Shown in pieces: positions 30,072 through 61,627 of a stretch of 64,000 nt of DNA. Every line of letters starts with the position of its first letter. Position 1 is the stretch's first letter. Where the stretch lies: the IMG/VR virus record IMGVR_UViG_3300031992_000005, positions 128,001 to 192,000 of that record; one strand, written 5' to 3'. Source of the stretch: a virus. The translations under genes were made by a program, and so were the position numbers. Under the pieces are notes generated by a model that worked only from the letters and a program-made list of their open reading frames with translations, was not told the origin of the DNA and did no database searches.

Positions 30072-30587
30072 ATGACGGTAATCAAAGTAGATGAGTCAAA
30101 AGAGCCTTTTGATATTATCAAAATTCATAAGGCCCTAGAAAAAGTTTTCTCTCAATGCGGAGAAGATTTAACAGAAGAGATCTTAACTAACCTGGATGAA
30201 TATGTCAAGAAATCGTTAGACACTGAAGCAGATGTTGAGATTGAGGTGGATGATATTCACAACCTAGTTGAGCAATTTCTTATGTTGAATAACTTCTTTG
30301 CTGCATCTAAGTCTTATATCTTAGGACGATATAAGAAGGCCTTAGAGAGAGCAGAGAACAAAATGTATATTAAAAGTTTATCAGAAAAATTAAGTGCAAT
30401 TGATGTAGCTAATCAAAATGCAAACGTAGATGAGAAGAGCTTTGGTGGTAGAATAGGTGAGGCTAGTAGATATGTTGTAAAAGACTTTGCCTTGAACTAT
30501 TGTATGAGCCGAAAATCAAAGAACAATCATCTTAATAATGAAATCTATATTCACGACCTCGATTCTTACACAATTGGTTCTCATAAT
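30072..30587 (+). CDS. nrdD: nrdD exon 1, N-extein part
   Basis: ATP-cone-like MTVIKVDESKEPFDIIKIHKALEKV; ends ...IYIHDLDSYTIGSHN. Confidence 0.8.
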
Positions 30588-33500
30588 TGCGCCCATGGTA
30601 AGTCATGGGTTAAGATAAAACATGGTGGCAAAATTCATTTAACTCGTATTGAAGATCTTGCTAAAGAAGTTGGTTTGACTGATGGTAAACTAGCTGATGT
30701 ATCAAAAGACTGTTGGCAGATTTTGTCACGTGATGGATGGACAAAGCTCAAGAATATTTCCCAGAGAAAATTAAGGGAAGATGAAGAGCTTTTTACAATT
30801 AAGACAAGAACAGGCATACCACTTAAATTGACTGGTGAGCATAGATTGCCTATTCTAGATGAAAACGGTGAAGAAAAAGTAGTGAAGGTTAAGAACCTAA
30901 AGGTAGGTGATTCTCTGCTTGATATAGGGAATATTCGTTTTTCAGAGGAAGATTTGAATGAGTCTTTCTTGAACTTATTAGAACTTAACGACGATGTTGT
31001 AGATATTAGGATAACTAATCTATCTTCATTAAAAAGCTATTTGGAGTATCATTATGGTATTAATTTTACGGAGTTTGCTAGAAAGAATAATTTTGCAATA
31101 GATCCTAGGGCAAAAACGATGAAATTATGCGATTTCGTAAAGTTAACAAGAGAATATCCAATTTCATTTGAAGTTTATAGTAATTTATTAATTAAGTCCA
31201 GTGGTTCAAAGCATACTTATCCACTTCACATACCGTATACACCACAATTAGCTAAACTTTATGCTTATATTTATGCAGATGGTGGAGTATATGTGAATGA
31301 GGAGAAAAGCATGTTTCAGATTACTTTTACAAATACTAATGAGAAGCTTTTGGATGATTTCATTGATTGCTATGAAGATGTATTTGGATATAGACTTAAC
31401 AAATCGTATCCAGGTGCTACGGCAACTTCTCCTTGTATTAGAGTAACTGACGGAACCAGACTCATAGTAAAGATCTTTAGAGATTTTGCTGGGGCTAGAA
31501 AAAATGGATCCAATAATATCTCGGTACCAGACTTTGTTATTAATGGAACAAATGAGATCAAGTATGCATATTTATCTGCTTGTATAGATACTGACGGTTG
31601 TCTCAATAATAATAGAATTACCTATCACTCCTGTTGTGAAAGATATTGTCAGCAGTTAGCAATTATGTTAAACTCGCTTGGTTATCATCCAACCGTAGTA
31701 CAGTCAGGTAAAGCAGGTGAAGAATATCATTTCGGAAATAAGGTCGGAAAAAGAAACTTTGATTCTTTTGCAGTTGCGTTGTCGCGTAAAGATGAACTTG
31801 CTGCATTACAGTCAAAATTATCTTGCCTTAAGCACAATGATACTTATGTGTATCGTGGACTTAAGGATAAGTATGTTGAGAATAGGATTGTATCTATTTC
31901 AACCAGTTATGAAGATTGTTCCGTATATGATATGGAAACTGCTTCACATTGGTATATTATAAATAATTATGTCAGTCATAATTGTCTCACAATTCCATTT
32001 GACGAACTTCTCGCCAGTGGATTTAATACGAGACAGACTGATGTAAGACCAGCAAACAGTATTAATACTGCTTTGCAACTTGTAGCTGTAATATTCCAAC
32101 TTCAGAGTTTACAGCAATTTGGTAGGCAAAACTGCCTGTTAAGCCCTTTCCACTAATCAGTGGGGTATAGATGTAATCTATGCTAACGATGAAGCCTAAG
32201 TGTTCAGTGATGCGACATAAGGTAATATCGTGGGAATGTAATTTAATAAAATTACAAGCCTGTATCGACTATCTGCGGATCGGCAGAGTAAGGCAACTAT
32301 TGATACGTTGTTTGAAATGGGCTTTGCTAGATTTATTAAGTCTAGTTAAGATATAGTCAGTGCATATAGAAATATATGATAAAACGGGTGTATCGGCATC
32401 ACACCTCGATTGGACTCTTGTTCCATACGTTAAGAAATCGTTTTATAAGCATTTCAAGACAGGAGCAGAATTCATTGAAGGAGTAACAATTCCTATTGAG
32501 GAATTTAACGATAAAATGTCGCTCGATGATGAGAAGTATAAGTCGAGCGGAAAAGTTTATACATTTGCTATTAAGCAGACAGAGAAAGAACTAAAGCAAG
32601 CAGTGGAGGGAATGTATCATAATCTCAATACACTCCAATCACGTAGTGGGAACCAATTATAACTTGCTGATTATCAGCTAGTTACGAAAGTAGCGAAATA
32701 TTGATTGGCTATGTAGAAATACATTGAAATAATCGGGGCAAAATCGGTGAACCCTAAATTTTAAATTGTAAAAATTAATTCATTTCACTTTAATAGAAAT
32801 TATTATATGGGTAAAAGAGTAAAAATCACAGAAGAATTAAAAAAAGATATTATAAATTTTTATCGCAGTAAGCCAATGTCATTTCTTACAGTAAGCGAAA
32901 AATACGGTTTATGTTTGCCAACAATAAGTAAGATTTTAAAAGACGAAGAAAGATACAAGAAAGCGTCTATTTTTAATCCAGACTTTGATGAAGCGTATTT
33001 TGAAAATATTGATACAGAAGCAAAGGCATACTTTTTTGGATTAATAATTGCTGACGGTAATGTTTTTATCGACGAAAAAAATAAAAAAGCGAATAGGCAA
33101 GCAGTTATATCAATAATGCTAAATTCAAGTGATGAATATATACTAGAGCGCTTTAAAAACGAGGTAAAAACAAATACTATTGTTGGACATGATGGTAGAG
33201 GGTGTTCACAAATAGCGGTTAGAAGTAATAAAATGTCAAAAGACTTGGAAAAATATGGTGTTGTGCCAAGAAAAAGTTTTATAACTTATTTACCACAAAT
33301 AGATAAAGAGTTAATGCCGCATTTAATAAGGGGCATAATGGATGGAGACGGCAGTATAAATGCCCATTTAATTAAAAGTGGTAGATTTTTACATTCGATT
33401 GCATTTTGTGGAACTCATAGATTAATGTCTGAAATATCTGATTTTATATATTCTAATGCGAATTTGAATACAAAACCCAAAGTGTATGATTATAAAACTA

Positions 33501-35642
33501 GAACACTTAGTGAAATTGCTGTAAGAGGTATCGATGATATGTTTAAACTTGGGGAATTTATTTATAACAATTCAACCATATACTTAAACAGAAAAAGAGA
33601 AACTTATAATATGTTTTTAGAACATTACAATTTTTAAAACAAGGGAATACCGAGGTAATTTCTGAGATTGCGAAAGGCTCAGAAATACCGTAGAGCGTAG
33701 GAGGTGAATAAATATAATCCTCCCAAGAGTGTCCCCCCTTAGCGAGTAAAGTCGAAGGTGAAAATGTACGCCGACCTTATGGGAAACCATAAGAACTATG
33801 GGATAAAAAGCCTGTAGGATAACATAAGTGGCCATTTACATCTATCAATTACGGTACATGTACGTCCGTAGAAGGTAGAATGGTGATAAAAGCCTTGCTT
33901 GAAGGTTCGATTAATGGTGTGGGTAAATTTCATAGAACATCCATATTCCCTAAAAGTACCATTGGGGAAATAAAACAAGGTGAACTGTCAGAGACAGGTG
34001 TGGAAGTAGAATATAGTAGGAAATGACTATTGAGATACTTTTGCTAACAGGGGAAATCTAAACTTTAAATTAAAGCACGACAATCCTGTGCCAAGTTCTT
34101 TTATAGAAAAGGTCAAACGACTATCCTATGACGTTATTTAACTGAGGAGTAGGTCTATAGCGATATAGTTCCGAAGTGCCTTGTACTACTGAAGAGTAGT
34201 AATGATATAGTCTAATCCGGCTTCCTAGTAAGCGTTAAAGTATTGCGAAAGCAACGGTATATAATGTGTGGAATTTTCCAGTATATGAAGGGTGTTAATG
34301 ATAAGCCTGGAACGCCAAATTATGATATGTATAAACTTGCATTAGAGTCAACAGCAAAACGTTTGTATCCAAATTATGCGAACGTTGACTGGAGTGGGAA
34401 TGCTGGATATGATAGAAATGATCCAAAAACTTACTTCAGCACGATGGGTTAGTGTAAATGTAGCTCATCTAAAATCTCTTGAACCGTGCCAACGGGTGTC
34501 CAGAAATGGGCTAACTGCCAGGCCCTAAAGTTTTAGGGTGAAGCAGTGCTAAGCTTAGAAGAATTTCTAAGAAAGTGTATCGACTATTGGTGATGAATGT
34601 AGCCAAGTAGGGGAGGAGATAGGCACCTCTTCGAAGCGGGAGACTTCTCAGGAAAATGAGAAGAAGATATAGTCAGTGCCTTTGGTAACAAAGGGTTAAC
34701 ATGTGCAGAACTGCAAACGGTTTTGATATAAATGGTTTAGGTCAGTTAAAGGATGGTAGAGGAAATGTATGTCCAGTTACTATCATTATGCCGACCTTAG
34801 CGATGGAAGCCGACAGAGATGTAGAGAAGTTCATGCGTCTCTTAGGAAGAAAAATTGAAGAAGCAAAAGACATGTTAATTGAGAGATTCAACTGGATTTG
34901 TAGTCAAAGTCCAGAGTCTGCTAGATTTATGTATGAGAATAATACTATGGCGGGTTATGTTCCGTCAGAGGGTATTAGGTCTGCATTAAAGCATGGAACT
35001 CTCAGTTTAGGTCAGCTTGGCTTAGCAGAAACTCTCCAGTTATTGATTGGAACGGATCATACAACAGAGGAGGGTATGAAGTTAGCCAAGAGAATTGAGT
35101 CTCTTTTCAAGAAGAGATGTGCAGAATATAAAGAAAAGTATAAATTAAACTTTGGTGTATACTACACACCAGCCGAAAATCTCTGTTATACTGCATTGAA
35201 GAAATTCAGAACAAAATATGGAGTAATAAAGGATGTAAGTGATAAGGAATTTTTCACTAATTCCATCCATGTTCCTGTATGGAGAGATATGAACCCATTT
35301 GAGAAGATTGATATTGAATCTCAGCTCACGGGTTATTCTTCGGCGGGTTGTATTACTTATGTTGAACTCCCATCCACAGTATTAAATAATATTGAGGCTT
35401 TGGAGACGTTAGTGAATTATGCAATGGATAAGGATATTCCTTATTTTGCAGTTAATGTCCCAAATGATACTTGTATGGAATGTGGTCATACTGGTGAGTT
35501 CGATGTTTGTCCTGAATGTGGTTCAGATAATGTAAGTCAGTTAAAGCGAGTTACTGGCTACTTGAATCTAGATTACAGAACTTCTTTCAATGAAGGAAAG
35601 CAGGATGAAGTACGGTATAGAGTAAAACACATCAAAGGTTAG
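30072..35642 (+). CDS. nrdD: anaerobic ribonucleoside-triphosphate reductase NrdD. Mosaic gene with 5 exons and an intein in exon 1; inferred mature protein about 723 aa
   Basis: ATP-cone N-terminus, IYIHDLD, SRSGNQL-PFTSINYGTCTSVEGRMV, IFP-CGIFQYMKGVNDKPGTPNYD, STMG-CRT, Zn ribbon CMECGH..CPECG, and glycyl-radical RVTGYL. The pieces are spread over 5 track ORFs and one untracked frame. Confidence 0.9.
30588..31982 (+). mobile_element. intein (465 aa) with a LAGLIDADG homing-endonuclease domain, in-frame within nrdD
   Basis: Starts with Cys (CAHGKSWVKIK). Has block B LKLTGEHRLPI (TxxH) and two LAGLIDADG motifs (LAKLYAYIYADGGVY, KYAYLSACIDTDGCL). Ends VYDMETASHWYIINNYVSHN followed by +1 Cys (CLTIPFDELLASGF). 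Confidence 0.8.
31983..32123 (+). CDS. nrdD: nrdD exon 1, C-extein part
   Basis: CLTIPFDELLASGFNTRQ...LQSLQQFG. The ORF then runs into junk and a stop 11 codons later. Confidence 0.75.
32124..32386 (+). mobile_element. group-I-like intron 1 of nrdD (263 nt, no ORF)
   Basis: The 5' exon ends in T and the intron ends in G. Joining gives QQFG-GVSASHLDWTLVPYV. Contains CGACTAT (32266) and GATATAGTC (32350), which can pair GACTA/TAGTC (P7-like). Confidence 0.7.
32387..32658 (+). CDS. nrdD: nrdD exon 2
   Basis: GVSASHLDWTLVPYVKKSF...NLNTLQSRSGNQ(L). It has no plausible start codon of its own at the conserved region. Confidence 0.75.
32659..33830 (+). mobile_element. group-I-like intron 2 of nrdD (1172 nt) carrying a LAGLIDADG homing endonuclease gene
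   Basis: The 5' exon ends in T and the intron ends in G. Joining gives SRSGNQL-PFTSINYG. I did not see the GATATAGTC element in this one. Confidence 0.6.
32807..33637 (+). CDS. LAGLIDADG homing endonuclease (intron-encoded), N-terminal HTH-like region
   Basis: Two LAGLIDADG motifs, YFFGLIIADGNVF and HLIRGIMDGDGSI. Sits between nrdD exons 2 and 3. Confidence 0.85.
   Translation: MGKRVKITEELKKDIINFYRSKPMSFLTVSEKYGLCLPTISKILKDEERYKKASIFNPDFDEAYFENIDTEAKAYFFGLIIADGNVFIDEKNKKANRQAVISIMLNSSDEYILERFKNEVKTNTIVGHDGRGCSQIAVRSNKMSKDLEKYGVVPRKSFITYLPQIDKELMPHLIRGIMDGDGSINAHLIKSGRFLHSIAFCGTHRLMSEISDFIYSNANLNTKPKVYDYKTRTLSEIAVRGIDDMFKLGEFIYNNSTIYLNRKRETYNMFLEHYNF
33831..33951 (+). CDS. nrdD: nrdD exon 3 (40 codons; not in the ORF track)
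   Basis: Hand translation: PFTSINYGTCTSVEGRMVIKALLEGSINGVGKFHRTSIFP, a highly conserved NrdD block. Confidence 0.75.
33952..34266 (+). mobile_element. group-I-like intron 3 of nrdD (315 nt, no ORF)
   Basis: The 5' exon ends in T (cct) and the intron ends in G. Contains CGACTAT (34118) and GATATAGTC (34204). Confidence 0.65.
34267..34449 (+). CDS. nrdD: nrdD exon 4
   Basis: CGIFQYMKGVNDKPGTPNYDMYKLALESTAKRLYPNYANVDW...YFSTMG. Confidence 0.75.
34450..34703 (+). mobile_element. group-I-like intron 4 of nrdD (254 nt, no ORF)
   Basis: The 5' exon ends in T (ggt) and the intron ends in G. Contains CGACTAT (34581) and GATATAGTC (34666). Joining gives STMG-CRTANG. Confidence 0.7.
34704..35642 (+). 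CDS. nrdD: nrdD exon 5 (C-terminal third with Zn ribbon and glycyl-radical loop)
   Basis: CRTANGFD..., CMECGHTGEFDVCPECG and RVTGYLN. Confidence 0.85.
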   Translation, partial: CRTANGFDINGLGQLKDGRGNVCPVTIIMPTLAMEADRDVEKFMRLLGRKIEEAKDMLIERFNWICSQSPESARFMYENNTMAGYVPSEGIRSALKHGTLSLGQLGLAETLQLLIGTDHTTEEGMKLAKRIESLFKKRCAEYKEKYKLNFGVYYTPAENLCYTALKKFRTKYGVIKDVSDKEFFTNSIHVPVWRDMNPFEKIDIESQLTGYSSAGCITYVELPSTVLNNIEALETLVNYAMDKDIPYFAVNVPNDTCMECGHTGEFDVCPECGSDNVSQLKRVTGYLNLDYRTSFNEGKQDEVRYRVKHIKG

Positions 35643-35645
35643 TTT

Positions 35646-36143
35646 ATGAGGTATATTAAAATAACAGGCCCTGATGTAGAAAATGGTCTAGGTTTTAGAA
35701 CTACGTTATGGATTTCTGGGTGTAAGTGCCATTGTGAGGGATGTCATAATCCTGAAACATGGTCCTTCACATTCGGAAAGGAGTTCACTGATGAATCTTA
35801 TCAGGAGCTAAAGGAAAATTTATCCAAGCCTTATATCAAGGGGCTAACTTTATCTGGTGGTAATCCAGTTGATTCCCCGGAAGATTTATTAAGTTTATTG
35901 AAAAGAGTAAGAGAGGATTTTGGTAATTCAAAGGACATTTGGCTTTATTCTGGCTATGTATTTGAAGATCTCCTAAAGGATCCTCTATGTAAAGAAATTT
36001 TAGGCTTAGTTGATATAGTGGTAGATGGTCCATTTATCCTAAGCAAAAGAAATACAGCGCTCCCCTTCAGAGGTTCAGAGAATCAAAGAATTATCTTGGT
36101 TCAAGAATCCCTGAAAGAGGGAAATATAATCCTAAAGCAATAA
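35646..36143 (+). CDS. nrdG: anaerobic ribonucleotide reductase activating protein (radical SAM)
   Basis: GFRTTLWISGCKCHCEGCHNPETW cluster; LSGGNP; directly downstream of nrdD. Confidence 0.9.
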   Translation: MRYIKITGPDVENGLGFRTTLWISGCKCHCEGCHNPETWSFTFGKEFTDESYQELKENLSKPYIKGLTLSGGNPVDSPEDLLSLLKRVREDFGNSKDIWLYSGYVFEDLLKDPLCKEILGLVDIVVDGPFILSKRNTALPFRGSENQRIILVQESLKEGNIILKQ

Positions 36144-36493
36144 TAAATAATCCATTCCTCAGGAGAAAACTCTTGGGGAATGGCATCTGCTGAATGAAAA
36201 ATATTCATTTATATCAAAAAATATTCAAAAATAAGCAAGCTTTTTAAAATCACGTGATATTTATATATGAATACTAAGATAAATAATAAAAAAAAATAAG
36301 TGAACTTATGAAACATAAAAATATTAAAGTTGTTTCGATTGACACTGAAAATATGTTGTATACTTGTGACGATGGTAATGAATCCATTAATGGATGGGCT
36401 TGAAACATTGTCAATAGAAGAGTTACAGAAACACATAGATAGTGCAAAACAAGCAACACTTGATATAATTGAAAAAAAAATAGAAAGTAGGCT

Positions 36494-38134
36494 ATGATTA
36501 TACAGAGTAAGTATACAAAGATATTCCATTCAAAGGATTTAACTCGTCAGAAGTATGATGAGTTAAATGACTTTGCTGTGCTTATTCAAAACCATAAAAA
36601 CACCGTGTCACAATACGTTAATGATAACATTCTTCATTTCTTGGAATACAATAAGTTCCAATTCCTTAAGGTAATGAGAGAACGTTTCAAAGAAGTTATC
36701 CCAAGTTCATTTGATGCACAACTTTATACACAAGTGTTCACTTGTTATCAGAATAAATTCGATGCAATACAACGTAAACTTGTCTTTGAAATCGTTACAT
36801 TTAAAGGATTTGAGTTTTATAAACGTGATACCAAGAAACATAAGGAAGGTGACTTGAAAAAAGTAGTTTTTGATAAGAAACAAACACCATTATCTAACTG
36901 TCTTACTTATCTTGCGAGATACAGTAATGAGAATACAATAGACTACATCAATGACAATATAAGCAAGTGTGACGAGAAGAAACGTGAGTTCTATAACAAC
37001 ATACTAAGATGTTGTGATAAATTCGGATTTGAACGTCTCTACAATCTTGCTTTGTCAAAAAGAAAACGTGTTGTCAAGCATTATTCTGAATATCCTATTG
37101 AGTTCAAGTCATTAACGTTCAGTGGTAGGTGTAGGAAGACAAGGATAATAGACTACAACAGTAGGTTTGGTTCAGTAATCAATTCATTCGTAAGTCTCAG
37201 TGGAATTGGTAGGAAATCATTTGATGTACCAGTTACCTTTAATAAAGGTTGGCATGGAAGTATGAAGGATTACAGAAAGAAAAATAACGATTATGAATAC
37301 ACGCTTACATTTAATGAAAAGAATCACCAAGTGAATATTCATCTGTGTAAAGATGGAGAAAGGTATATACCACAAGTACATGGTGAAACAATAGGCATTG
37401 ATGTTAATTGCAAACATAATTTGTTCAGTTTGTCAGATGAAACCACTTATGACTATGATAGAAAACTTGTTAATGACTTCTGTAAACTATCTCTTGAAAT
37501 AGATAAATTGAAAGAAAAAGATAAAAAATATAAGGTTGGTAAACGTAAACAGCAGAAACTTGATACTCTCAAATCCAAAATGATTAAGTCTGAGCAGCAA
37601 CTTATTGCTAATATGTGTAAGGTATTACATTCACAAGGTGTGGGGCATATTGTAATGGAAGACCTTGATAATGGATTTGGCAAATGCTATGTTAAAGATA
37701 AGGATAATGAGAATATAAATTACAACAGAAAGGTTAAATTCCTTGGCTTGAGTAGTCTTAAACAAGAAGTTGAGCGTATTGCAAAGAAATATGATATTGC
37801 GGTTTCAACAGTTCAAGCAAGTTATACATCGAAGATGTGTCCTATGTGTGGATGTATTGAGGACGAAAACAGACCAAACCAAGAAACATTTGAATGTGTT
37901 GAATGTGGACATAAAGATAATGCAGACTTTAATGCTGCAAAGAACATAAGGAACAGAGTGCTTGTAATCGTGTTACGAGATTTGCTCTTAAAACAAAAGG
38001 ATAATGGTGCTTTTGAGCCTAAGAAACTTAAACGTGAGAAGGTAAAGGAGGTATTGTTATCGTTTCGAAGAAGCCTACAAAATGTAGGAAGTGAATGTAC
38101 AGAAAGTAGTGTGACTACTTTTGACTATGTTTAA
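36494..38134 (+). CDS. tnpB: TnpB / Cas12-like RuvC nuclease (IS200/IS605-IS1341-type OrfB), 546 aa
   Basis: RuvC-I ETIGIDVNCKHNLF; RuvC-II GHIVMEDLDNGF; zinc ribbon CPMCGC...CVECGH; RuvC-III DNADFNAAKNIRNR. No TnpA and no CRISPR array nearby. Confidence 0.85.
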   Translation: MIIQSKYTKIFHSKDLTRQKYDELNDFAVLIQNHKNTVSQYVNDNILHFLEYNKFQFLKVMRERFKEVIPSSFDAQLYTQVFTCYQNKFDAIQRKLVFEIVTFKGFEFYKRDTKKHKEGDLKKVVFDKKQTPLSNCLTYLARYSNENTIDYINDNISKCDEKKREFYNNILRCCDKFGFERLYNLALSKRKRVVKHYSEYPIEFKSLTFSGRCRKTRIIDYNSRFGSVINSFVSLSGIGRKSFDVPVTFNKGWHGSMKDYRKKNNDYEYTLTFNEKNHQVNIHLCKDGERYIPQVHGETIGIDVNCKHNLFSLSDETTYDYDRKLVNDFCKLSLEIDKLKEKDKKYKVGKRKQQKLDTLKSKMIKSEQQLIANMCKVLHSQGVGHIVMEDLDNGFGKCYVKDKDNENINYNRKVKFLGLSSLKQEVERIAKKYDIAVSTVQASYTSKMCPMCGCIEDENRPNQETFECVECGHKDNADFNAAKNIRNRVLVIVLRDLLLKQKDNGAFEPKKLKREKVKEVLLSFRRSLQNVGSECTESSVTTFDYV

Positions 38135-38164
38135 TTCTTCGGAATGGAGTAAATTAATAGTGAG

Positions 38165-38419
38165 ATGGAATTATACAAAGAAGATTTATTTGGTATAGGT
38201 ATTCCTGATAAAGATTCAGAAGATAATACCTTTTTTGCACTTGAGCATGGTTCTGGCACTTATGTAGCCAAAATTATTCTTAGAGAAGTTTTAAGGCTTT
38301 GGAATTATGAAATCAAGGAGGAGAAGGACATTGTTATGGATTCTCAATTCATGTTAGGTTGTTATACTAACATGCCTTGGTCTGTATTTAAAGATTTTCG
38401 CAAAAATTTTGTGAAATAA
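38165..38419 (+). CDS. hypothetical protein
   Basis: 84-aa track ORF starting 30 nt after the tnpB stop. Confidence 0.4.
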   Translation: MELYKEDLFGIGIPDKDSEDNTFFALEHGSGTYVAKIILREVLRLWNYEIKEEKDIVMDSQFMLGCYTNMPWSVFKDFRKNFVK

Positions 38420-38489
38420 TAGTAGGTTGTTGTTAATAATAGATTAATGAACCTATAAAATTACATTTAAGATGAAGTAAAGAATCGTT

Positions 38490-38870
38490 ATGACGGAGAA
38501 GCAGATAGATCTTTTAATAGATCTAAGAAATCAATGTATAGGAAGAGGTGTAATGTATTTAACCATTCCTGAGCAGAAGCCGGAGTCTATTAGTAGTAGT
38601 ACTAGTATTATTGCTTCTACTCCTAAGAATCCGTTCACAAAGGAAGAGGTAGACCTTCTTATTCAGATGTTATTGAAGACATTTGAATTTAAGGGAATTA
38701 TGAAAAAGGGTGATGAGCATTTTCTATGGTCGAGTATCCTAGGAGATCATGCAACAAATCCTTTTTACATATTCGAGTCTCCTGGTTATCGCATTGAACT
38801 GACAACAGTAGATAAGCGCTTTATAGCTGAATTAAGGGCAACTGTCGAGGAAACATCTTCCAAATCGTAA
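38490..38870 (+). CDS. hypothetical protein
   Basis: Track ORF. Confidence 0.5.
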   Translation: MTEKQIDLLIDLRNQCIGRGVMYLTIPEQKPESISSSTSIIASTPKNPFTKEEVDLLIQMLLKTFEFKGIMKKGDEHFLWSSILGDHATNPFYIFESPGYRIELTTVDKRFIAELRATVEETSSKS

Positions 38871-38972
38871 AAACTCTGTTATGAGAACTTAAAACTCTTA
38901 CTTAAGATTAAACAAAAAGAGATTCAGGTCTCTGTTGAGTTAGATTATAACAATTAATTTTTTATATATTAT

Positions 38973-40103
38973 ATGTTTGATGATGAAGATTTTCTTCTAG
39001 ATGATGAAGATTCAGATTCGGGTTATATAGTAACCCCAGCGGATGAAGATGCTGAGGATGACAATGACGATGAGAATGGGTCGGAAGTTGAAGAAGAAGC
39101 CAAACCCACTAGAAAAAAGAAAGCAACTGAGGATGATTATGATAATCGAATGACTCATGATGAGTTAGCCCTTAGTAGTGCTTACGATGATATTCGGGCT
39201 GCTAGTAAGAATCCGGATAAGATTTCTGTGGGTGGTAAAATGTTTGATCAAAACATTATAGATGCGGTAAGAACTATTATTGGTTGTTCACCAGCTAATA
39301 CTTCTACTCACTTTATTGAGAAGATAACACTTGAATTCTTCCAATCTCAGGGTCATAATCGTATTCCATCCAGCGTATATACTCCAGATCAGCCATTACG
39401 TGGAAGTTCAATTGGTGAGGAATTTGGTGGTCAGGATGATAATGGTTTCAATGAGCAATATGCTAAAGAAGCCAGAGAGCAGATTGCGAGGTTTATAAAA
39501 TACTTGGCGGATAGAGATTTGAGTAAAGATTCTACTGTAAGTAGAAAAAGGAAGTTAAGACAGCTCCCTGCTTTTATCATTTTCCTATTCAGTTCTGGTA
39601 TGTACGACCTTCTCCTGAACTGTGAGACATTACCACCGGAGTATAAAACTCAGGTGAATAATGCTTTCAAGAGAATTCAGAAACAGAAATATGATATTGT
39701 TGAGGCATTGGCTAAGCGTTATGAAGAGCTAGGTAGGCAGGCTATAGCAGATAGAGTGAGAAAAATGGGTCTCACTTGGTTTGATAAGGAGCCAGCTGAA
39801 TTAACGGGGTTAAAGACTTTCAAAGATCTTGACCTAACCCATGAGGATATCATGGTATATCGTGAATTTAGACCTAGATATGTAAACGCTAGTAAAAATA
39901 TAACTCAGGAATTAATATCAGATATGATTGAAGTTGTCTTAGTCCCTGGCAAGATTTATGAAAAGCTAAAGGATAAGACTAGATTTGATGCTATCTCTGA
40001 TGTTAAGCAAGTCTACAAAGATTGGTCCGCTAATAATGCAGTGGATTCTGAGCTTGCCTCAAAAATTATCTGGAAAGATCCTAAATTAGTAAATAAACAA
40101 TAA
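38973..40103 (+). CDS. hypothetical protein with an acidic N-terminus, first gene of the RNAP block
   Basis: 376-aa track ORF whose stop lies 2 nt before the beta' start; no motif recognised. Confidence 0.55.
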   Translation: MFDDEDFLLDDEDSDSGYIVTPADEDAEDDNDDENGSEVEEEAKPTRKKKATEDDYDNRMTHDELALSSAYDDIRAASKNPDKISVGGKMFDQNIIDAVRTIIGCSPANTSTHFIEKITLEFFQSQGHNRIPSSVYTPDQPLRGSSIGEEFGGQDDNGFNEQYAKEAREQIARFIKYLADRDLSKDSTVSRKRKLRQLPAFIIFLFSSGMYDLLLNCETLPPEYKTQVNNAFKRIQKQKYDIVEALAKRYEELGRQAIADRVRKMGLTWFDKEPAELTGLKTFKDLDLTHEDIMVYREFRPRYVNASKNITQELISDMIEVVLVPGKIYEKLKDKTRFDAISDVKQVYKDWSANNAVDSELASKIIWKDPKLVNKQ

Positions 40104-40105
40104 AT

Positions 40106-41249
40106 ATGGCAGATGTAAATCTAGAATTATTAACAGACGAAGATATTATTGACTATACTAGATCAGATGGTCGTGATAGAATTGTTAATAATCATAGAGA
40201 CTTAAACTTAAGGTTTGATTACATAAAACCAGAAGGTGGTGGAGTGTATGATACTGAAATTTTTGGTTCCCCATATGAAGATAGATGTATTTGTGGTTAT
40301 ATTAGACAACCCTCGGCAGAGCCTTGTCCTAACTGCGGAGCACGTGTATATTCTATGGAAGAAGGCTTGAGACGTTTTGCCAGAGTTGAATTACCATTTT
40401 ATTATCTTAATGAACTTAGATTTAATATCTTTAAGGAATTTTTCGATAAGATATTTGAAGGGAGTACCATTAAGCTTGAATTTTTTGGTGATGACTTAAG
40501 GAGAAACGGTTATGCTGAAGGACGAAGTAAGAAAAAGCTTGGTATTAAAGTTTTTGATACTTGCCAGTTTGAGTATAATAAAGCTAAGAAGGAACTAACT
40601 ATTTCAGAGTTTATTACCGACGAATCCAAATGTTCCTACGAAGGTCTCATGAAGATTATTGAGGAAAATTTTCCTGAGAGTCTCATGGACTATAAACGGC
40701 TGATCAATAGATATTATCTTATACTACCAGCTATGATGAGAAGATTTAGTCTTGTCAAGGAAGGTACATCTACGAAGATGAATACTAACAAGCTGAGTAT
40801 ATGGTATTCTATTATAATTCGTCTCTGTTGTGTAGAAGATGATAAGAAAAATCCATCCAACTATAAAACAGTGATGGACATGTTTAAGACTCCTGGTGAG
40901 AGAGTAAGATATACTGCTCTCCTAAGAGCTCTTATTAATGTAGGTAAGAAACAGTCAACGGAGCTTCTAAATACTTCAAAGAAAAACTTATCACGAAAGG
41001 TTTATTCAGTTCGTGTAAAGAATTCTGCCAGAAGCCCTATTGTTCCAAGTACTACCTTGAAAGTAGATGAACTAGGTGTTCCTAGATATCTTGCTTATGA
41101 AATGTGTAGAGAGGGATTCATAAAATATCTTTGTGAAGAACTAAACTTTACTCCAGAACAAGCAAGAAAATCTACAAAAGATGAATCTGATAATCTTGAA
41201 CTGCAAAGACTCTTTAAGGAGTATGCAGAGAAAAGATACGTGCTAGTGT
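40106..41249 (+). CDS. rpoC: rpoC-like exon 1
   Basis: The N-terminal zinc-binding region through ...KRYVLV. The track ORF stops 1 codon later. Confidence 0.75.
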
Positions 41250-44200
41250 ACTAATTGGTACGTAATTTTGAGAATTGCTGAAACCTGAATAAATCCGGGA
41301 ACCAGCAGCTAGTTTTGGGTTTCTACAAAATAATGCCTATGATAGAAGAAGAAAAGCCCTGGTCTAGGAGTGAACATATGAAATACCTACACAGTCAAGG
41401 AAGATATCTTGGCACAAGTAAGATAGGTCAATGGAATTCTAGTCCAGAGAAACATCTTAGGATGATATCAATTCGTGAAAAGAATCTCTTAGATAAATCG
41501 TCTCATGGTTATGGGTCGGAATATCATATGAGGTTAGCAAATAGAACCCTATTACATAATAAATTTCAAGGAGAGGAAGGTTTTCTTTATTTCTTAGATT
41601 TTCCCGCTAGTGTTAAAGTGGGATTTTCAAAAGATTGGGAAAGAAGGATTAACCAACAATTGCCAAAGCAGATATTAGGTGGGAAAGTTATAGCGATTAT
41701 ATCAGGTCCCACTAATGACCTGGCTGATCTGGAATTTGATACTTTTGTCAAGTTCCAGAAATATACTAAATTAGATTCCACCGGAACTAGGTATACTGAA
41801 TTCTTGGAGAAAAGAAAAAAATCAGAAATCTATAAGTTCTTGAAAGAGTCTGTTAAAAATAATAAGAACCTTAAATTTGAAATTCAAAACTAGTTCAACG
41901 ACTATGTGCAAAAGAAAAAGATATAGTCTGTCCTAGGTCGAAAGACTTAGGGGTAACGAGTAACACGACAGCCAGTACTTCATGAATATAATATTTACTG
42001 TCAGAAGATTAGGATAGTTGATCAAGATGCAGTAGCTTATCCAATTGAGCTCTGTGGACCACTTAACGCTGACTTTGATGGTGATACTGTATCTATGATC
42101 CTGGTTCCTGATGAAGTAGCTGAGGATACCTATAAAAAGATGAGTCCTAGGTATAACAAGATTTATAAGAAAAATCTTGAAAATGTCTTTGTATTCAATC
42201 ATGAAACTCTTAATGGTCTAGCCAATGCTACTGAATATACTCCTGACGATCCTAATGATCTGAAGGAACCTAAGTATTATTACACTGATTATACAGAACT
42301 CCTAAAAGATGTTGAGGTTAATCATAAGATTAATTATGGTACACCTATTGTCTTTACAGGAAAAATAGGGGATGTAGATTATCAGAGTAAGATTACTACA
42401 TACGGACGTCTTAGAATATCTAAGATAATTGATGCAGACCTTGATGAGATCCGAGTAGAAGGTAAGCCTATTATGGAAAATCCGTATGAAAGACTAAACG
42501 CGAAGACAGCAGGTAAACTGATGTCTTATCTCTATGGTTTCGATAACTGGGTAGAGAAGGCAAATGAATTACAAAAATTTGCCCTAAAGGTTGTAACTAA
42601 GACAGGTGTAGTAACATTTGACTATTCAACCTTGTATGCTGATACTGATAATGAAACTTATAGAGATATTAGAAAAATTGCTGATTCGGAAGATCTTACA
42701 GATAAGCAGAAACTTACCTTAATTACAGAGAGATATGGAAAATATCTCAAAGGCCTTGAGAGAGATTTTAGTTCCGACCTGAAGAAAGAACTAGATAGAT
42801 CTGCTAGGGTAAAGTTAAATTCCATTATTGCTATTAATGCACCGTCATTGATTATCAATGGTCCGGAAGAAAAGGTAGTAGTAACTCATGGAAATCTTTT
42901 GGAAGGTTTTAGTGAAAAGGAATACTTGTATCATGCTATCGAAAATAGATCCCTCCTGACGATCAAGCAGAGTGGCGTCAATAGTTTTTATCGGTGCGTC
43001 ACTATAAAAACCACAACTATTGCTGGAAAATAATAAAATAAATTATAATCAGCAACTTATTATGAAAGAAAAAGTATTAAATTGGGTAGAACTACTAACT
43101 GCAGTGGCAGCTGTTATTGGTGGTATTGGAGAGATCCTCAAGCAATTTGGAATTGCCTCTGACAAAGTGAAGGAGACAATTAAAGCTAAGAGGGAAGAGG
43201 CTTTTATGAATAATAAGCCCAACGACTATTGTTGTGGCACTCAGGAAGAACAGAGTGAGAAACCTGAGTGATGGTATAGTCTATCCTGGATTGAAAGATT
43301 CAGGGCGGCGTGGGTTGAAAACTAACTCACGTCTGGCCGATTGGTGGTTATTTAACTAGACAGATCTCATTCTTGTTGAATAATTACACTTATAGAGAAA
43401 AGGGAGAAGATAAGGAAAATCCTGGTCTTCTTATTCCTAGATACGTGGCTACTGGTAGAACTTCTCCTACAGGAAAGGTATATCCAGCAGTTACAAAGAA
43501 AAATGAAGATGAACTAGTACCTGTTAGATCTATTGTAACTAAATGTAAAGGAAACTTATATGAAGTTACTCCAGATCTCTTGGGCAAAGCTTTCTTAAAG
43601 GCTAGTTTTCCTGATGGATCTGCAATCGGTCCTAGTGTTGGTACTAGTTTTACAGAAAGTACTACTCAAGGTATCCTTGCTCTTAAACATGGTGGTCATG
43701 AAAGAAAGCAAGCAGTTGAAGGAAACTTATATGCACCTAAAGATTGCGAGCTTATTGAAGATGGTAAGTTCTTGAAACTAAAAGTAAGAGGTAACAAAGA
43801 ATTAGTCTATCCTAAACCTAGTAATTGGGTTGGACTTGGTAAAACGGAGTTCAAGGAAGGTGAATTGGTCGGTACTGCTTACAATACTTCTTCGCCAATT
43901 ATCATGCTTAATTCTGTCTTAAAGCTTATGCAGGCTAAGGGCGGAACTGGTAGTAAATACTTTGAAAAGGATAACGTTATTATATCAGACTGTTATGCTT
44001 ATGAAGAAGGTGTAATAAACTACGTTGAGGATAAGCATGGAAGAATGAATGTAACTATTGGAAATAGATACTATGCTTATAATCCAGAGGCTATGTATTA
44101 TTATCCTTCAGGAACTACTATTAAGAAGTTTCAGAGATTTTGTTCTGGTGTAGTTAATATGAGACAGGTTTCTTCTGACTTAGGTGGTGATCTTAGCTCA

Positions 44201-44783: not shown

Positions 44784-45149
44784 ATGAATAAAAATAATGA
44801 TAGTTATTATTACAAAATAGTTTTGGCGTATGAAATACCATACAACGTCTTAGATAGTAACGATCCTGATAAGATCTTAGCTAGGGAGAATCTATATCAA
44901 GCGATAACTAAGATTATTCCCACTAGTAAGTATGATAAATTTTCAGTTAAACTTATGCTTTTTCAATTAAAGGATACGTTTAACTACGTGGTGATGTTTG
45001 ACTCTTTCTTTAGGTCTACAGAAGGTTTACCTATGAGTGAGTACACTGAGGCTAGTAAGATTAAACAGGCAGCTAAGGATGAACTAGAGAAATACTTTAA
45101 TTCACTCGACTGCGATTATAAACCACTGAATATAATTACATTATTATAA
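44784..45149 (+). CDS. hypothetical protein in the RNAP block
   Basis: Track ORF; TAATG junction with the beta-like gene. Confidence 0.5.
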   Translation: MNKNNDSYYYKIVLAYEIPYNVLDSNDPDKILARENLYQAITKIIPTSKYDKFSVKLMLFQLKDTFNYVVMFDSFFRSTEGLPMSEYTEASKIKQAAKDELEKYFNSLDCDYKPLNIITLL

Positions 45150-48100
45150 TGAGTAATTTTAATCAATTTTTCAAAAATCAAGGGGCAAAGACGATGGTAG
45201 AGCGTTTCTTTACCGGAATAGATGAATATACGCCAAATAAGAAACTAACAAACCTAACTTGGCATCTAGCCGAAGAAGATAAACGCCCAGCTTCATATTT
45301 CATAGAAAATGGATTAACTGCAACTCATAAGGTAATCCTGGAGTATACAATTAACTATGATGATGAAATTCGTACATCTGAGTTTGAAGTCCCTAGAGAA
45401 ATAGACGGTGTATTTATTATAGAAGGAGCTTATCGTATTGCTACTAATAACCTAGGAAAAGACTATGATTGTAGAATCAATATGTCAGGTACTGGTAGAC
45501 AATACATTAACTTTGACTATGGTAGAGAATATGACATCAAGACTGGTATTCTTAAAATAAAGAGGGTAAATCCTGACTTAGGTTTACCTGAAAAAGTAAG
45601 AGAATATAAGTTAGATGAAATAGATGAACTCAGTGGTATTGAAAAAGAAGTTCTAAAACTTTCTGAAAGACAGAGAAAGAAGTTTCAGGTAAAGCTTGAT
45701 ATTGATTATTCCCCGGATTATATTTCAAAGAAGCTTATCGAGGATTGTATTGCTTATGGCGATGATAGAATTCGAGATCTTATTATTGATAAGAAGATTG
45801 ATTCTGTTCCCGTTGGTTTTATGAAGTATATCTTCAATGGAGGTAATAATAAGAACTTCTATGGTACAAAATCCCAACTAAGAAACTATTGGAGTAAGCA
45901 AGGTAAGTTACAGGACCAGATTAATGTACTTACAAATCTTTGTGCTAGATACTGGAAAGGTAGTAGTTCAAAGAAGAAAGGAGAGGATAATGATGTTCAA
46001 GTTTCTCCTGGTGTAAATGCCATGAACCTGGAAAGTATCACGAATAAAATCTATATTCCTGAAACTGTAGCTTATAATACTACCTTTAGTGACTTGATTT
46101 GTGTTGGTGCTACACCAAATAATGGTAACATCGGTAAGCAGAATGCCTTGACTGTATCTACCCATATTACAGATGAGGATGTTCTCTTTGACTGTTATAC
46201 TACCAAGTTTCAAAAGATCACTATCCCATACTTGGATTATCTTAATCATAAGGTATGTGCTAGTGAGTACGTTGACTATGATACTAATACCGTTAAACCC
46301 GATAAGGATGGTAAGGTAGAAGTTAAGCATAGAATGCGTAGAAAGATGGTACCAGTGGAGGAAATTGAGTTAATTGACCTTCACCCAGACTATCGTTTAT
46401 CAGAAGAAGTAAGACGTATACCGTTTGTGAATTTTACTGACTCTGTTCGTATCTGTATGGGTAGTGGTATGTTAAAGCAAGCTATTCCACTTGTTAATGC
46501 AGAAAGACCTCTAGTAGATACAGGTAACTATGAAGAGCTTCATACAAACGTCTTGAATGAACGTTTTAAAGAAGAGTCTGGTGTAGTTAAGGATGTAAAT
46601 GAAGAGGGAGTATTAATAGAACTTCCTAATAAGGATGAAATTCTTATTCCAAGAAAAACTGCTATTCAGAGTATAAATGATGTTGACGTCTTTACTGAGC
46701 CTAAAGTTAAGAAAGGCCAAAAGGTAAAGAAGGGTGATGTTATTACTGGAGCAGTTGGCTTGGAAGAAGATACCTATAAAATGGGTATTAATGCTCTCGT
46801 CTTATTCCATGCAATGTTTGGTGATGTCAATGAAGATGCCTTAGTAGTTAGTGAGTCTTTCTCAAAGAAAATGCACTCTTACTCTGTTATCGACCTGATA
46901 TATGAAGTAAGAACTAATGAGGCAATCAAATGGATAGCTCCAATAGGTCAACAGGTAAAGTCTAAAGATCCCGTCATGATGACCTATAAGGCTGTTAAAC
47001 TTGACTTAGTCAATAAGGCCTTGAATGATAAATTAGGTGGTATCTTTGGAGATCAAAAACTAGATCTCTCTGAATATACTATTGAAAGTAACTTGGAAGT
47101 TCCTAATGACATTGATGAAGCTTATGTTAGTGATGTTAGAATTCAGGAAAATTTACACCCTAGAGTTCCTGGTGGTACTAAGAGACCTGACTTAACTTAT
47201 GCTCATACATCAGAGGAGACTATCAAAGATTATAATTTTGATAGAAAAATTATCTATGATAGATATCCAGAATATATTGCAGCAGATAGACTTAAGGATA
47301 TATCATTAGCAGATAAGGATTATAAGATTGTTTATGTAGTTCGTATTAGACTTATTAAGAGAACAAATCTTATGATCGGATCTAAGGTTACCAACCGTTA
47401 TGGTGGTAAGGGTGTCATTTCTAAGATCTTGCCAGATGATAAGATGCCAATCATGGTAGAATCTGCAACTGGTAATAAGAAAGTTGTGGATATTGTCATG
47501 AACCCTTATAGTACAATTAACCGAAAGATTCCTTCTGTTAATATGGAGAGTCTCTTAGGTTCAATTGCGCATAGAATTCATGACATAGTAGATGAGAGGA
47601 AAAATGATAAGAAAAAACAGGAAACTATCATGCCTCTTGTTCAGAAGTATTATCCTGGTCGATTTGATGGAATGACATTAGAGAAGTTCTTGAAGTTACA
47701 TGAAAATAGTAAACTTGAGGACGTATATTACTTCAATGTAGGTAGTTACTCTAGACTTACTCCAAAGCAGATAGATGAATGGGCAAAGGAATTAGGTGTT
47801 ACACCTCAATCAAAGATTCTCATGCCTAGTGATACTATCGCTGACCTTGATGAGCTTAAAGCGAACTTAAGTGAGGAAGAATATAATACCGCCGTTAAGA
47901 ACTTGACAGGTAGATACGTAGAAGTTGAAAAGCCACTTAGTGTTGGTTATATGACTATGGAAGAACTATATCAAATTCCAACTTATAGTGATAAGGTAAC
48001 TTCTAGTATGTTCGGTGTTGATGTTAATGAGTGGGTAGATTCTCCTATTATGGGTAGAGGTGGTTATAGAAAAACTGGTCAGATTATCGGTGAAATGGAG

Positions 48101-48310
48101 CTCATGGCATACTTGTCAAGAAATGCCAGAGATTTCATTAAGCTCTCTAGAGGAGATACCTCAAGAGAAGATAATCAGCTCTTCTTGAATAACCTCTTAG
48201 GTCTTGGTCTAACTGTTACAGACAGTAAGGGTTATAATCAGGGCGGTTCATCTCTCAAGAGTAGACTTGGTGAGATGAAGACTAAATTCAGACTAAAGAA
48301 TCAGAAATAA
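45149..48310 (+). CDS. rpoB: multisubunit RNA polymerase beta-like subunit
   Basis: NRYGGKGVISKILPDDKMPIM...VDIVMNPYSTINRKIPS (compare bacterial RHGNKGVISKI..EDMP...DIVLNPLGVPSRMN) and GGYRKTGQIIGEMELMAYLS (compare GGQRFGEMEVWALEAYG). Confidence 0.85.
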   Translation: MSNFNQFFKNQGAKTMVERFFTGIDEYTPNKKLTNLTWHLAEEDKRPASYFIENGLTATHKVILEYTINYDDEIRTSEFEVPREIDGVFIIEGAYRIATNNLGKDYDCRINMSGTGRQYINFDYGREYDIKTGILKIKRVNPDLGLPEKVREYKLDEIDELSGIEKEVLKLSERQRKKFQVKLDIDYSPDYISKKLIEDCIAYGDDRIRDLIIDKKIDSVPVGFMKYIFNGGNNKNFYGTKSQLRNYWSKQGKLQDQINVLTNLCARYWKGSSSKKKGEDNDVQVSPGVNAMNLESITNKIYIPETVAYNTTFSDLICVGATPNNGNIGKQNALTVSTHITDEDVLFDCYTTKFQKITIPYLDYLNHKVCASEYVDYDTNTVKPDKDGKVEVKHRMRRKMVPVEEIELIDLHPDYRLSEEVRRIPFVNFTDSVRICMGSGMLKQAIPLVNAERPLVDTGNYEELHTNVLNERFKEESGVVKDVNEEGVLIELPNKDEILIPRKTAIQSINDVDVFTEPKVKKGQKVKKGDVITGAVGLEEDTYKMGINALVLFHAMFGDVNEDALVVSESFSKKMHSYSVIDLIYEVRTNEAIKWIAPIGQQVKSKDPVMMTYKAVKLDLVNKALNDKLGGIFGDQKLDLSEYTIESNLEVPNDIDEAYVSDVRIQENLHPRVPGGTKRPDLTYAHTSEETIKDYNFDRKIIYDRYPEYIAADRLKDISLADKDYKIVYVVRIRLIKRTNLMIGSKVTNRYGGKGVISKILPDDKMPIMVESATGNKKVVDIVMNPYSTINRKIPSVNMESLLGSIAHRIHDIVDERKNDKKKQETIMPLVQKYYPGRFDGMTLEKFLKLHENSKLEDVYYFNVGSYSRLTPKQIDEWAKELGVTPQSKILMPSDTIADLDELKANLSEEEYNTAVKNLTGRYVEVEKPLSVGYMTMEELYQIPTYSDKVTSSMFGVDVNEWVDSPIMGRGGYRKTGQIIGEMELMAYLSRNARDFIKLSRGDTSREDNQLFLNNLLGLGLTVTDSKGYNQGGSSLKSRLGEMKTKFRLKNQK

Positions 48311-52385: not shown

Positions 52386-52458
52386 CGCGGGATGGAGCAG
52401 TTGGTAGCTCGCCAGCCCCATAAGCTGGAGGTCGGGGGTTCGAATCCTTCTCCCGCAA
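52386..52458 (+). tRNA. tRNA-Met (CAU), initiator-like
   Basis: A hand-folded 73-nt cloverleaf. CGCGGGA/UCCCGCA acceptor with a C1-A72 mismatch, A11:U24, anticodon loop CCCAUAA, T-loop TTCGAAT. The 5' half closely resembles bacterial tRNA-fMet (CGCGGGGUGGAGCAG). Confidence 0.85.
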
Positions 52459-52537
52459 CTATAATAATTTTTAAGGCCACCCAAATCCTTATAATTGTAC
52501 TAAAATTCAATTTTTTATTAACTTAATTAAAGTGTTT

Positions 52538-61541: not shown

Positions 61542-61627
61542 GCCGGGATGACGGAATGGGTGAGACGTGACAGATTTAAAATCTGTTGGCTATTGCAGCC
61601 GTGTGGGTTCGAATCCCATTCCCGGTA
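61542..61627 (+). tRNA. tRNA-Leu (UAA), type II with a long variable arm
   Basis: A hand-folded 86-nt structure. Acceptor gccggga/tcccggt, 3-bp D stem, anticodon stem acaga/tctgt with loop TTTAAAA, 16-nt variable arm, T-loop TTCGAAT. Confidence 0.8.

Follow-up and report, generated by a model that had tools for sequence, protein, structure and literature searches.

The locus described here lies in a stretch of 64,000 nucleotides (nt) of viral DNA, positions 128,001 to 192,000 of IMG/VR record IMGVR_UViG_3300031992_000005, to which in the following we will refer as the window. Just past the stop codon of nrdG, and before a gene of 84 amino acids (aa), the window carries an open reading frame (ORF) of 546 aa whose product belongs to the TnpB family of RNA-guided nucleases. 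We consider it likely that positions 36184-38142 represent a non-autonomous IS607-family copy that has lost its transposase gene tnpA, and in which TnpB serves as an RNA-guided homing or retention nuclease. The features of the locus are as follows, TAM standing for transposon-adjacent motif:

36152 to 36183, plus strand: flanking stem-loop 3' of nrdG (CCATTCC at 36152-58, GGAATGG at 36177-83), target DNA outside the element
36174 to 36178, plus strand: predicted TAM, TGGGG here (family consensus ATGGG), directly 5' of the guide-matching sequence
36177 to 36183, plus strand: left 7-nt direct repeat GGAATGG, single copy in the empty allele
36184 to 36268, plus strand: left end (LE) with the core CATCTGCTGAATG, starting with CATCTG at 36184
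36269 to 36476, plus strand: small-ORF remnant, disrupted, in two frames
36477 to 36493, plus strand: tnpA deletion joint, where siblings carry tnpA with or without extra small ORFs
36494 to 38134, plus strand: tnpB, the 546-aa ORF of the RNA-guided-nuclease family
37955 to 38142, plus strand: predicted omega-RNA (right-end RNA, reRNA) scaffold of eight helices, covering the last ~60 codons plus 8 nt
38135 to 38142, plus strand: right-end terminus TTCTTCGG, where homology to all other copies stops
38141 to 38147, plus strand: right 7-nt direct repeat GGAATGG, pairing with the left copy
38143 to 38162, plus strand: predicted guide AATGGAGTAAATTAATAGTG, flanking phage DNA and the first position where copies diverge

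Regarding the protein, the ORF contains all three RuvC motifs (IGIDVN with D303, VMEDLD with E389 and DNADFNAAKNI with D478) and, between RuvC-II and RuvC-III, the TnpB zinc ribbon formed by C449/C452/C468/C471 (CPMCGC...CVECGH). Neither the D/E/D triad nor the ribbon varies among 26 close copies or in a 30-sequence alignment reaching down to 27% identity. Profile searches returned PF07282 (Cas12f1-like TNB, 1e-16) and a weak OrfB_IS605 match in Pfam, phrog_506 'transposase' in PHROGs (4e-25), and the NCBIfam model NF040570, guided_TnpB (83.8 bits, E = 1.4e-23, residues 137-488). By these features the gene reads as a genuine, intact TnpB-family nuclease for which cleavage is predicted, in agreement with an earlier reading of the locus made without database searches (the sequence-only reading), which had likewise recognised a RuvC nuclease of the TnpB/Cas12 type whose catalytic residues are intact. 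Compared with 13 other copies, tnpA-less ones included, tnpB shows a ratio of nonsynonymous to synonymous substitution rates (dN/dS) of 0.07-0.11, about 0.08 overall, i.e. purifying selection acts on the gene also where tnpA is missing.

When 1.84 billion cluster representatives were searched exhaustively, 147 clusters were recovered at E <= 1e-30. These proteins are mostly 500-600 aa long and align end to end, and the window TnpB belongs to a distinct long subfamily, one that is also divergent relative to the curated guided_TnpB model. Among GenBank phages, a megablast of positions 35000-40000 gave no match, and tblastn gave distant C-terminal TnpB matches only.

An AlphaFold2 model built on a diverse alignment reached a mean predicted local distance difference test (pLDDT) of 89.4 and a predicted template modelling score (pTM) of 0.67, and was used in place of a model from a shallow alignment (87-92% identity, pLDDT 41.6), which was set aside. 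Foldseek placed the model in the TnpB/Cas12 family with probability 1.0 for each of Cas-lambda, Cas12f, TnpB of ISFba1 and ISDra2, and Fanzor2. Over the whole chain, Cas-lambda ranked top with a query-based TM-score (TMq) of 0.55-0.56 and E = 1e-15; the values were 0.42 for Fanzor2, 0.41 for ISDra2 TnpB, 0.36-0.41 for Cas12f and 0.33 for the IS607 TnpB of ISFba1. This confident model points to the bilobed TnpB/Cas12 fold, with the extra length forming a helical region that resembles the recognition (REC) lobe (helices 18-95 and 132-197). Sequence profiles cover the RuvC half only and there match Cas12f/TnpB (3e-25) better than Cas-lambda (5e-8), while ISDra2 TnpB is matched only weakly (E = 7e-4) and in the C-terminal half alone.

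Important insight was gained from other copies of the element. Among 5.8 billion proteins searched there are over 120 full-length clusters with 87-93% identity, their contigs being as long as 370 kb, and IMG/VR contained 35 loci at 75-92% identity. Overall, relatives are 75-93% identical and occur in many contexts on phage contigs of 100-400 kb, often several per genome: several contigs hold two copies, and one shows at least four right ends. The neighbourhoods of the copies are unrelated, e.g. MerR/DUF723 genes at locus L001 and ClpP at locus L003. One identical TnpB protein (P0004) is found in two contexts, where the two elements share 99.84% identity over 3,180 bp, which indicates a very recent transposition. 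The family is of IS607 type, mobile and multi-copy, and is spreading among jumbo phages of the rumen and gut. Two of its host contigs additionally carry unrelated TnpB genes, one of 500 aa with HTH_OrfB_IS605 and TNB domains (L001, 5704-7206) and one of 378 aa with the classical OrfB_IS605 architecture (L003, 14980-16116), so these jumbo phages host several TnpB lineages.

Full-length siblings follow the order LE, small ORF, tnpA, tnpB, right end (RE), with tnpA and the small ORF situated between the LE block and tnpB in L006, L009, L010, L019, L037 and L250-L256. Their TnpA of 207-216 aa joins an N-terminal HTH_17/MerR helix-turn-helix (HTH) to a Resolvase catalytic domain (PF00239, 5e-22), arranged as in the serine transposases of the IS607 family (PMC6188088, PMC4058570). 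The small ORF, 74-76 aa long and intact in L006, L009 and L010, has no Pfam match. In L006, L010 and L037, an extra 0.6-1.2 kb lies between what are window positions ~36477 and 36493, and a tblastn search with the small ORF of L010 recovers it in the window as two pieces in different frames (36293-36382 and 36384-36476). Further reduction can be followed across the family. Deletion derivatives keep only the first 51 residues of TnpA (L001, L008, L011); others have LE joined directly to the tnpB start codon (L023, L024, L026, L029, L031, L032); and mini-elements of 173-242 bp retain only LE and the 3' RNA region (L113, ~175 bp; L115, ~240 bp and up to 242; L121, 224 bp). More than 20 independent copies without tnpA have an intact tnpB ORF. 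The sequence-only reading had presented the gene as a solo, possibly domesticated one; it is a tnpA-deleted member of a multi-copy IS607-type family with definable ends. The 103-aa MerR ORFs of L001, L008 and L011 were considered as excisionases and rejected, since they represent what these truncated copies have kept of TnpA, namely its first 51 aa.

Regarding distribution, 185,579 prokaryotic species representatives were scanned with two peptide patterns derived from 6 sequences, and among the matches listed only two were more than generic. The first is a TnpB 82% identical to ours on a 360,293-bp contig named 'MAG: Bacilli bacterium fecal_MAG_225' (L168, JBGVNW010000068.1), which probably represents a jumbo phage assigned to a bacterial metagenome-assembled genome (MAG), and this assignment may hint at the host lineage. 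The second has 31% identity and sits on a 2.3-kb contig. Among these listed matches, the TnpB subfamily is apparently phage-restricted.

The ends of the element could be defined by the same comparison. On the left, a homology block running from 36176/84 to 36309 or 36477 recurs upstream of tnpA or tnpB in L001, L006, L008, L010, L011 and L037, and in minimal copies the LE block is fused straight to tnpB or to the omega-RNA. Within LE, two direct repeats of AATATTCA (36200-07 and 36220-27), an AT-rich leader and the palindrome ATCACGTGAT (36249-36258) come after the core; the palindrome had been singled out in the sequence-only reading, and its left arm is not conserved in siblings, so that it amounts to no more than chance. 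A 134-bp upstream block considered as a separate element turned out to be LE itself. On the right, blastn against 40 loci shows that shared DNA ends within 38141-38154, a few bases past the stop codon. At base level the 3' end is TTCTTCG(G/A), being TTCTTCGG in most copies and ending in GA in some, and practically always an A comes next after TTCTTCGG. LE and RE do not form an inverted repeat.

Exact-protein look-ups of both flanking genes then yielded occupied and empty alleles of this site. Thirteen contigs are occupied, and two (L101 and L102) have nrdG followed directly by the 84-aa gene. The flanks of these two are 99.1% identical to the window over 1.4-1.8 kb, and they are without exactly 1,964 bp, which in the occupied allele are inserted at TGGGG|AATGG (empty site TTGGGG|AATGG), end in TTCTTCGG and are flanked by the GGAATGG repeat. 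The empty allele reads ...AAAACTCTTGGGGAATGGAATAAACTAATAG, the left junction of the occupied allele ...CTCTTGGGGAATGG|CATCTG... and its right junction ...TTCTTC|GGAATGGAGTAAATTAATAG. The element is therefore present or absent among near-identical phage genomes. The sequence-only reading had seen no recognisable IS ends; about 40 copies and the two empty sites give sharp ones, CATCTG at 36184 and TTCTTCGG ending at 38142. The insertion site falls within the 3' arm of the 7-bp inverted repeat CCATTCC...GGAATGG just past the nrdG stop codon, and the hairpin of 36152-36183 is present, identical and single, in L101 and L102. This hairpin probably also explains, by chance, a weak Rfam match to His_leader at 36080-36188. 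The position next to the nrdDG operon, to which meaning had been attached, appears incidental, because none of the ~40 other copies checked adjoins nrdG.

Next, the 3' region was analyzed as a possible guide RNA, based on an alignment of 29 distinct copies over their final 230 nt. RNAalifold returned eight helices with 59 pairs. Standard pairs are formed in 97.8% of cells, as compared to 39-52% when the 3' partners are slid by 1-3 columns, and 16 pairs have changed on both sides, as compared to 2-7 when slid; on any measure, 0 of 500 shuffles matched the observed value. G-U pairs are abundant, many of them at invariant positions, and this indicates a structured RNA on the sense strand. The window scaffold folded alone takes the same shape (-53.5 kcal/mol, z = -5.0). 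The synonymous rate (dS) over the last 65 codons is 0.02-0.6 versus 0.6-1.9 elsewhere, i.e. about 4-fold lower. In helix 5, TCGAAGAA (38065-72) pairs with the terminal TTCTTCGG (38135-42) and closes a junction that holds two hairpins, 38074-38088 and 38105-38119, which are helices 6 and 8 and show compensatory changes across the 29 copies. The conserved structure ends exactly at the homology boundary, where the predicted guide begins, and it is whole in the mini-elements L121 and L115, which consist of exactly LE and scaffold. Altogether, the covariation suggests that 37955-38142 is the omega-RNA scaffold of a new family. The sequence-only reading had expected a scaffold within 37950-38200, and structure up to 38142 with a guide from 38143 agrees with this. 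Of the three hairpins it listed, all are present and the first two belong to the conserved RNA; the third (38134-38145) straddles the boundary and is no part of this RNA, its 3' arm consisting of flanking DNA that no other copy shares.

Characterised IS607 TnpB proteins use a separate reRNA, RAGATH-18, located downstream of the ORF (PMC11061315); since that RNA lies wholly outside the ORF, the RNA of the window would be of a different family. The protein tail that overlaps the scaffold, residues 533-546 (38090-38131), is disordered in the model (pLDDT < 50), and in L022, L027, L031 and L037 the stop codon is displaced by a few codons with the RNA helices kept, which suggests that at the C-terminal end of tnpB RNA constraints outweigh protein constraints. 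Related jumbo-phage contigs (L121, L115, L113, L103, L110, L114) carry mini-elements of LE plus scaffold as well as bare 3' remnants of tnpB with the scaffold. Like the PATE elements of IS605, such minis and remnants could act in trans as a source of additional guides for TnpB. In another set of loci (L126, L129, L130 and L017(-)), a truncated copy of 62 codons plus scaffold ends right before the tRNA-like sequence GGAGCAGCGGTAGCTTGTAGGGCTCATAACCC..., and its predicted guide looks like it would be the 5' end of a tRNA-like gene.

The flanks of the insertions additionally carry information on targeting. All 13 occupied contigs have a 100% identical element and the same guide allele. Both empty contigs have a target allele with mismatches to this guide, at 38149, 38154 and 38164 (occupied-type flank AATGGAGTAAATTAATAGTGAG, empty allele AATGGAATAAACTAATAGTGAA). 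Three of the 15 single-nucleotide polymorphisms (SNPs) between empty and occupied alleles over 1.77 kb fall within the 16-nt span 38149-38164 (binomial P ~4e-4, pre-specified window), and the 40-nt intergenic stretch to the left contains none. At 17-18 independent junctions, the left flank shows ATGGG in 11 of 17 and GGG in 14 of 17 cases. From these left flanks, the TAM would be ATGGG/TGGGG, probably NTGGG.

Exact flanking repeats of 7-9 nt occur in 4 of 18 junction pairs as compared to 0.3% of permuted pairs, namely GGAATGG in the window, GGAGAAA in L006, GGAGTAA in L121 and GGATATGTT in L113; the 13-14 others have none. Six other copies have a near-identical spacer of 4-5 nt, AT(T)AA, between ATGGG and CATCTG. 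The idea that these 5 nt are a fixed, inherited part of LE was rejected on comparing L250 with L251, almost identical elements with the spacers ATAAA and TAAGA, so the spacer acts as a variable 'coupling' sequence. An origin of the repeats by fill-in of a staggered TnpB cut was likewise discarded, as the TAM adjoins the repeat and is not 16-22 nt off. Direct flank duplications of ~47 nt, ~85% identical and located at -202 to -156 from the ATG and +2 to +49 after TTCTTC, are seen in L017, L018 and L033 only, and long duplications were therefore rejected as a general feature.

From these data we infer a mechanism in which RNA expression and processing, TAM recognition, cleavage and homing follow each other. 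TnpA, assumed to act in trans, would mobilise the element through recombination at the G-rich site ATGGG|A. By analogy with what is established for TnpB (PMC8612924, PMC10055086, PMC10278001), the 3' end of the tnpB mRNA would be processed to an omega-RNA consisting of the scaffold and a guide of ~16-20 nt of flank. TnpB loaded with this RNA would recognise the TAM (T/A)TGGG followed by a guide match, i.e. only the unoccupied junction between nrdG and the 84-aa gene; no other target for the guide was found in the 64-kb window. A cut at that junction would lead to recombination with an occupied genome, either a sister copy or a co-infecting phage, and this would restore or copy the element. Given co-infection and active recombination, phages could in this way spread a tnpA-less element by restorative or non-restorative homing. 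TnpB homing has been described (PMC10055086), and non-restorative homing, so named in a review (PMC13565253), was shown for plasmids (PMC11870625). Overall, TnpB homing was shown in bacteria and plasmids, and for co-infecting phages it is treated as theoretical in the same 2026 review (PMC13565253). The fact that most copies are without tnpA, yet keep tnpB and RNA under selection, fits homing, as do the clustered mismatches between the guide and the two empty contigs. Among the three roles put forward by the sequence-only reading, a homing or retention nuclease fits best, and a domesticated regulator is at odds with clear ends and many copies. These two observations are what that reading had named as speaking against domestication, with the difference that the copies are found in phage and not in host genomes.

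Several observations weigh against a homing or retention nuclease carried by an IS607-family copy. No second TnpB and no TnpA homolog was found in the 64-kb window, as the sequence-only reading had noted for TnpA near the gene, and mobilisation in trans has to be assumed. The guided_TnpB score falls below the curated cut-off of 100 bits, with the N-terminal 136 aa outside the model. The Rfam covariance models, a check suggested in the sequence-only reading, matched neither an omega-RNA nor RAGATH-18 over 35500-39000, be it at gathering scores or at E <= 10. Only two empty contigs are at hand, and they are of one haplotype; the clustered SNPs could be haplotype-linked intergenic variation and are consequently only suggestive. 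Two metagenome scans for further empty alleles gave 0 matches with a degenerate junction pattern and chance matches only with a relaxed 18-mer. (Relatives of the downstream 376-aa gene, used to find empty sites in IMG/VR, were 54-58% identical and not syntenic with nrdG.) Lastly, the 7-9 nt repeats at 4 of 18 junctions and the variable LE spacer are not predicted by canonical IS607 chemistry, and are derivable neither from the 2-bp exchange of a serine recombinase nor from simple homing models. Judging from the junction repeats, the partner serine transposase may depart from textbook IS607 behaviour.

A bolder version of the homing reading is tentative, and we hold it to be rather doubtful as a whole: the tnpA-less TnpB locus would be a natural RNA-guided gene drive among co-infecting jumbo phages, such elements would persist through conversion of empty alleles by the flank-derived guide, the surviving empty alleles would be those with seed and distal mismatches, and the 7-9 nt junction repeats and variable 5-nt spacer would be left by a recombination or homing route beyond the canonical 2-bp exchange of serine recombinases. 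A weaker corollary would place the long phage TnpB clade near the root of Cas-lambda.

Alternatively, TnpB could be an inter-phage weapon, directed by the guide against co-infecting relatives without the insertion, which would be destroyed, and the element would be copied only incidentally. The only predicted guide target is indeed the empty allele of a near-identical phage, free-standing homing endonucleases of phages are known both to home and to exclude competitors (review PMC13565253), and purifying selection on tnpB in most tnpA-less copies would be expected here as well. But each copy targets its own insertion site only, which single SNPs would evade, and the minis, decayed copies and many sites of the family are the behaviour of a transposon. 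Mechanistically this explanation overlaps with homing, and sequence alone does not separate the two; we regard it as unlikely.

Very unlikely, in our view, is a passive, decaying remnant in which tnpB and RNA are nonfunctional and persist by virtue of a recent insertion. The deleted tnpA and frameshifted small ORF of the window copy, the many truncated 3' remnants in related genomes and the 100% identity of the element in 13 occupied contigs, which is consistent with recency, all point in this direction. The ORF, however, is full-length with every catalytic and zinc-binding residue, over 20 independent tnpA-less copies have intact ORFs with dN/dS ~0.08, and compensatory changes maintain the RNA helices; moreover, the lineage has persisted, as seen from a 7% protein difference to the nearest other copy. 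Finally, a domesticated TnpB (TldR-like or another factor beneficial to the phage) or a miniature Cas12 with a distant or unrecognised array is scarcely credible and largely refuted by the mobility data, since the small-Cas12-like length and enlarged helical N-terminal half, the Cas-lambda of huge phages as top structural match and the apparent phage restriction are set against an intact triad unlike that of TldR, no CRISPR array within 5 kb on either side, lack of synteny and absence from 99.1%-identical strains, a serine transposase in siblings, and a guide fixed by the flank with no second target in the window.

With a homing or retention nuclease as the preferred reading, the system is of a known kind, IS607-family TnpB with omega-RNA, and forms a new, apparently phage-restricted subfamily that is distinguished by its longer protein, by a scaffold located within the ORF, by a different predicted TAM and by unusual junctions. 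With the IS607 family (IS607, IS1535 and ISFba1-type) it shares the order of tnpA (MerR-HTH plus resolvase) and then tnpB, the lack of terminal inverted repeats, a GG right end, insertion by (G)GG, short direct repeats at the left end and a G-rich, TAM-like flank motif. A terminal GG, a preference for (G)GG targets and G-rich TAMs are described for IS607 elements (PMC6188088, PMC11061315, PMC13565253), which insert without target duplication (PMC6188088). The GG end and (G)GG target are found here, and TnpA with a MerR-HTH is found in siblings, being absent from the window copy by deletion; the absence of target duplication is not. The differences comprise a TnpB of 546 aa instead of about 390 aa, the scaffold inside the tnpB ORF instead of a separate downstream RAGATH-18 RNA (PMC11061315), an inferred TAM of ATGGG instead of AGGAG/GAGGG, the extra 74-76 aa ORF, repeats of 7-9 nt in 4 of 18 insertions as compared to none in IS607 (PMC6188088), and the location on jumbo-phage contigs instead of cellular genomes. 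In particular, the missing Rfam match, the scaffold within the ORF, the 546 aa and a TMq of 0.33 set it apart from the RAGATH-18/ISFba1-type elements.

In the case of the IS200/IS605 elements, the omega-RNA of ISDra2 TnpB likewise overlaps the 3' end of tnpB, ends at RE and takes its guide from the flank, and the IS1341-type and PATE-like derivatives show the same tnpB-only and RNA-only minis with a homing or retention logic (PMC8612924, PMC10055086). The family described here, in contrast, has a serine recombinase and not a Y1 HUH transposase, a G-rich and not an AT-rich TAM or target, and no subterminal DNA hairpins. Cas-lambda (Cas12l) shares very large phages as hosts and an expanded helical REC-like region before the RuvC/zinc core, whereas the window is without a CRISPR array or repeat-derived CRISPR RNA (crRNA) and its protein is ~200 aa shorter. 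Neither CRISPR-like nor tandem repeats were found within 31000-43000, as already noted in the sequence-only reading with respect to arrays, so the adjacent array that marks a Type V effector is missing in this interval. Fanzor2 and the IS607-like elements of giant eukaryotic viruses show the same combination of a ~500-aa TnpB-family nuclease (TMq 0.42) and a serine recombinase in a large double-stranded DNA virus; here the virus is prokaryotic, and the catalytic E keeps its canonical TnpB place ~60 residues before the zinc ribbon, in contrast to the rearranged one of Fanzor (PMC13565253). TldR and other domesticated forms have lost the triad and are fixed, syntenic single copies, none of which applies here. 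The free-standing homing genes of T4-like phages (Seg, Mob) are similar in that a selfish nuclease sits between conserved genes, is present or absent in relatives, and is predicted to cut the allele without the nuclease in co-infection. Recognition in our case is predicted to be RNA-guided and set by the flank, and there is a transposition route in addition.

The family provides material for testing homing in co-infecting phages: independent insertions by the dozen, RNA-only minis, and occupied and empty alleles that are matched within one phage population. It adds a compact nuclease of 546 aa, with a 188-nt scaffold and a probable NTGGG TAM from comparative data, in a clade outside Rfam and the curated TnpB models. 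A Cas-lambda-like fold in very large phages is also a lead on the origin of phage-borne Cas12 effectors.

The neighbourhood of the element holds further mobile DNA. Within 30072-35642, nrdD is split into several ORFs, of which the N-terminal one (694 aa) shows signatures of an intein and of LAGLIDADG. A LAGLIDADG-like ORF also stands free at 32807-33637, and two group I intron matches score below the gathering score of 50 (33942-34235, 39.8 bits; 34355-34695, 35.2 bits). Some otherwise identical strains (L087/L088/L095) have an extra HNH_3 ORF that splits the last nrdD exon, indicating that the nrdD locus is polymorphic for several selfish elements. As to the wider jumbo-phage context, the window encodes an RNA polymerase beta-like protein (phrog_3295, 45149-48307), an RNA ligase-like protein (16243-17448), tRNA-Met (52386-52459) and tRNA-Leu (61542-61628), has a GC content of ~34%, and carries nearly all genes on one strand.

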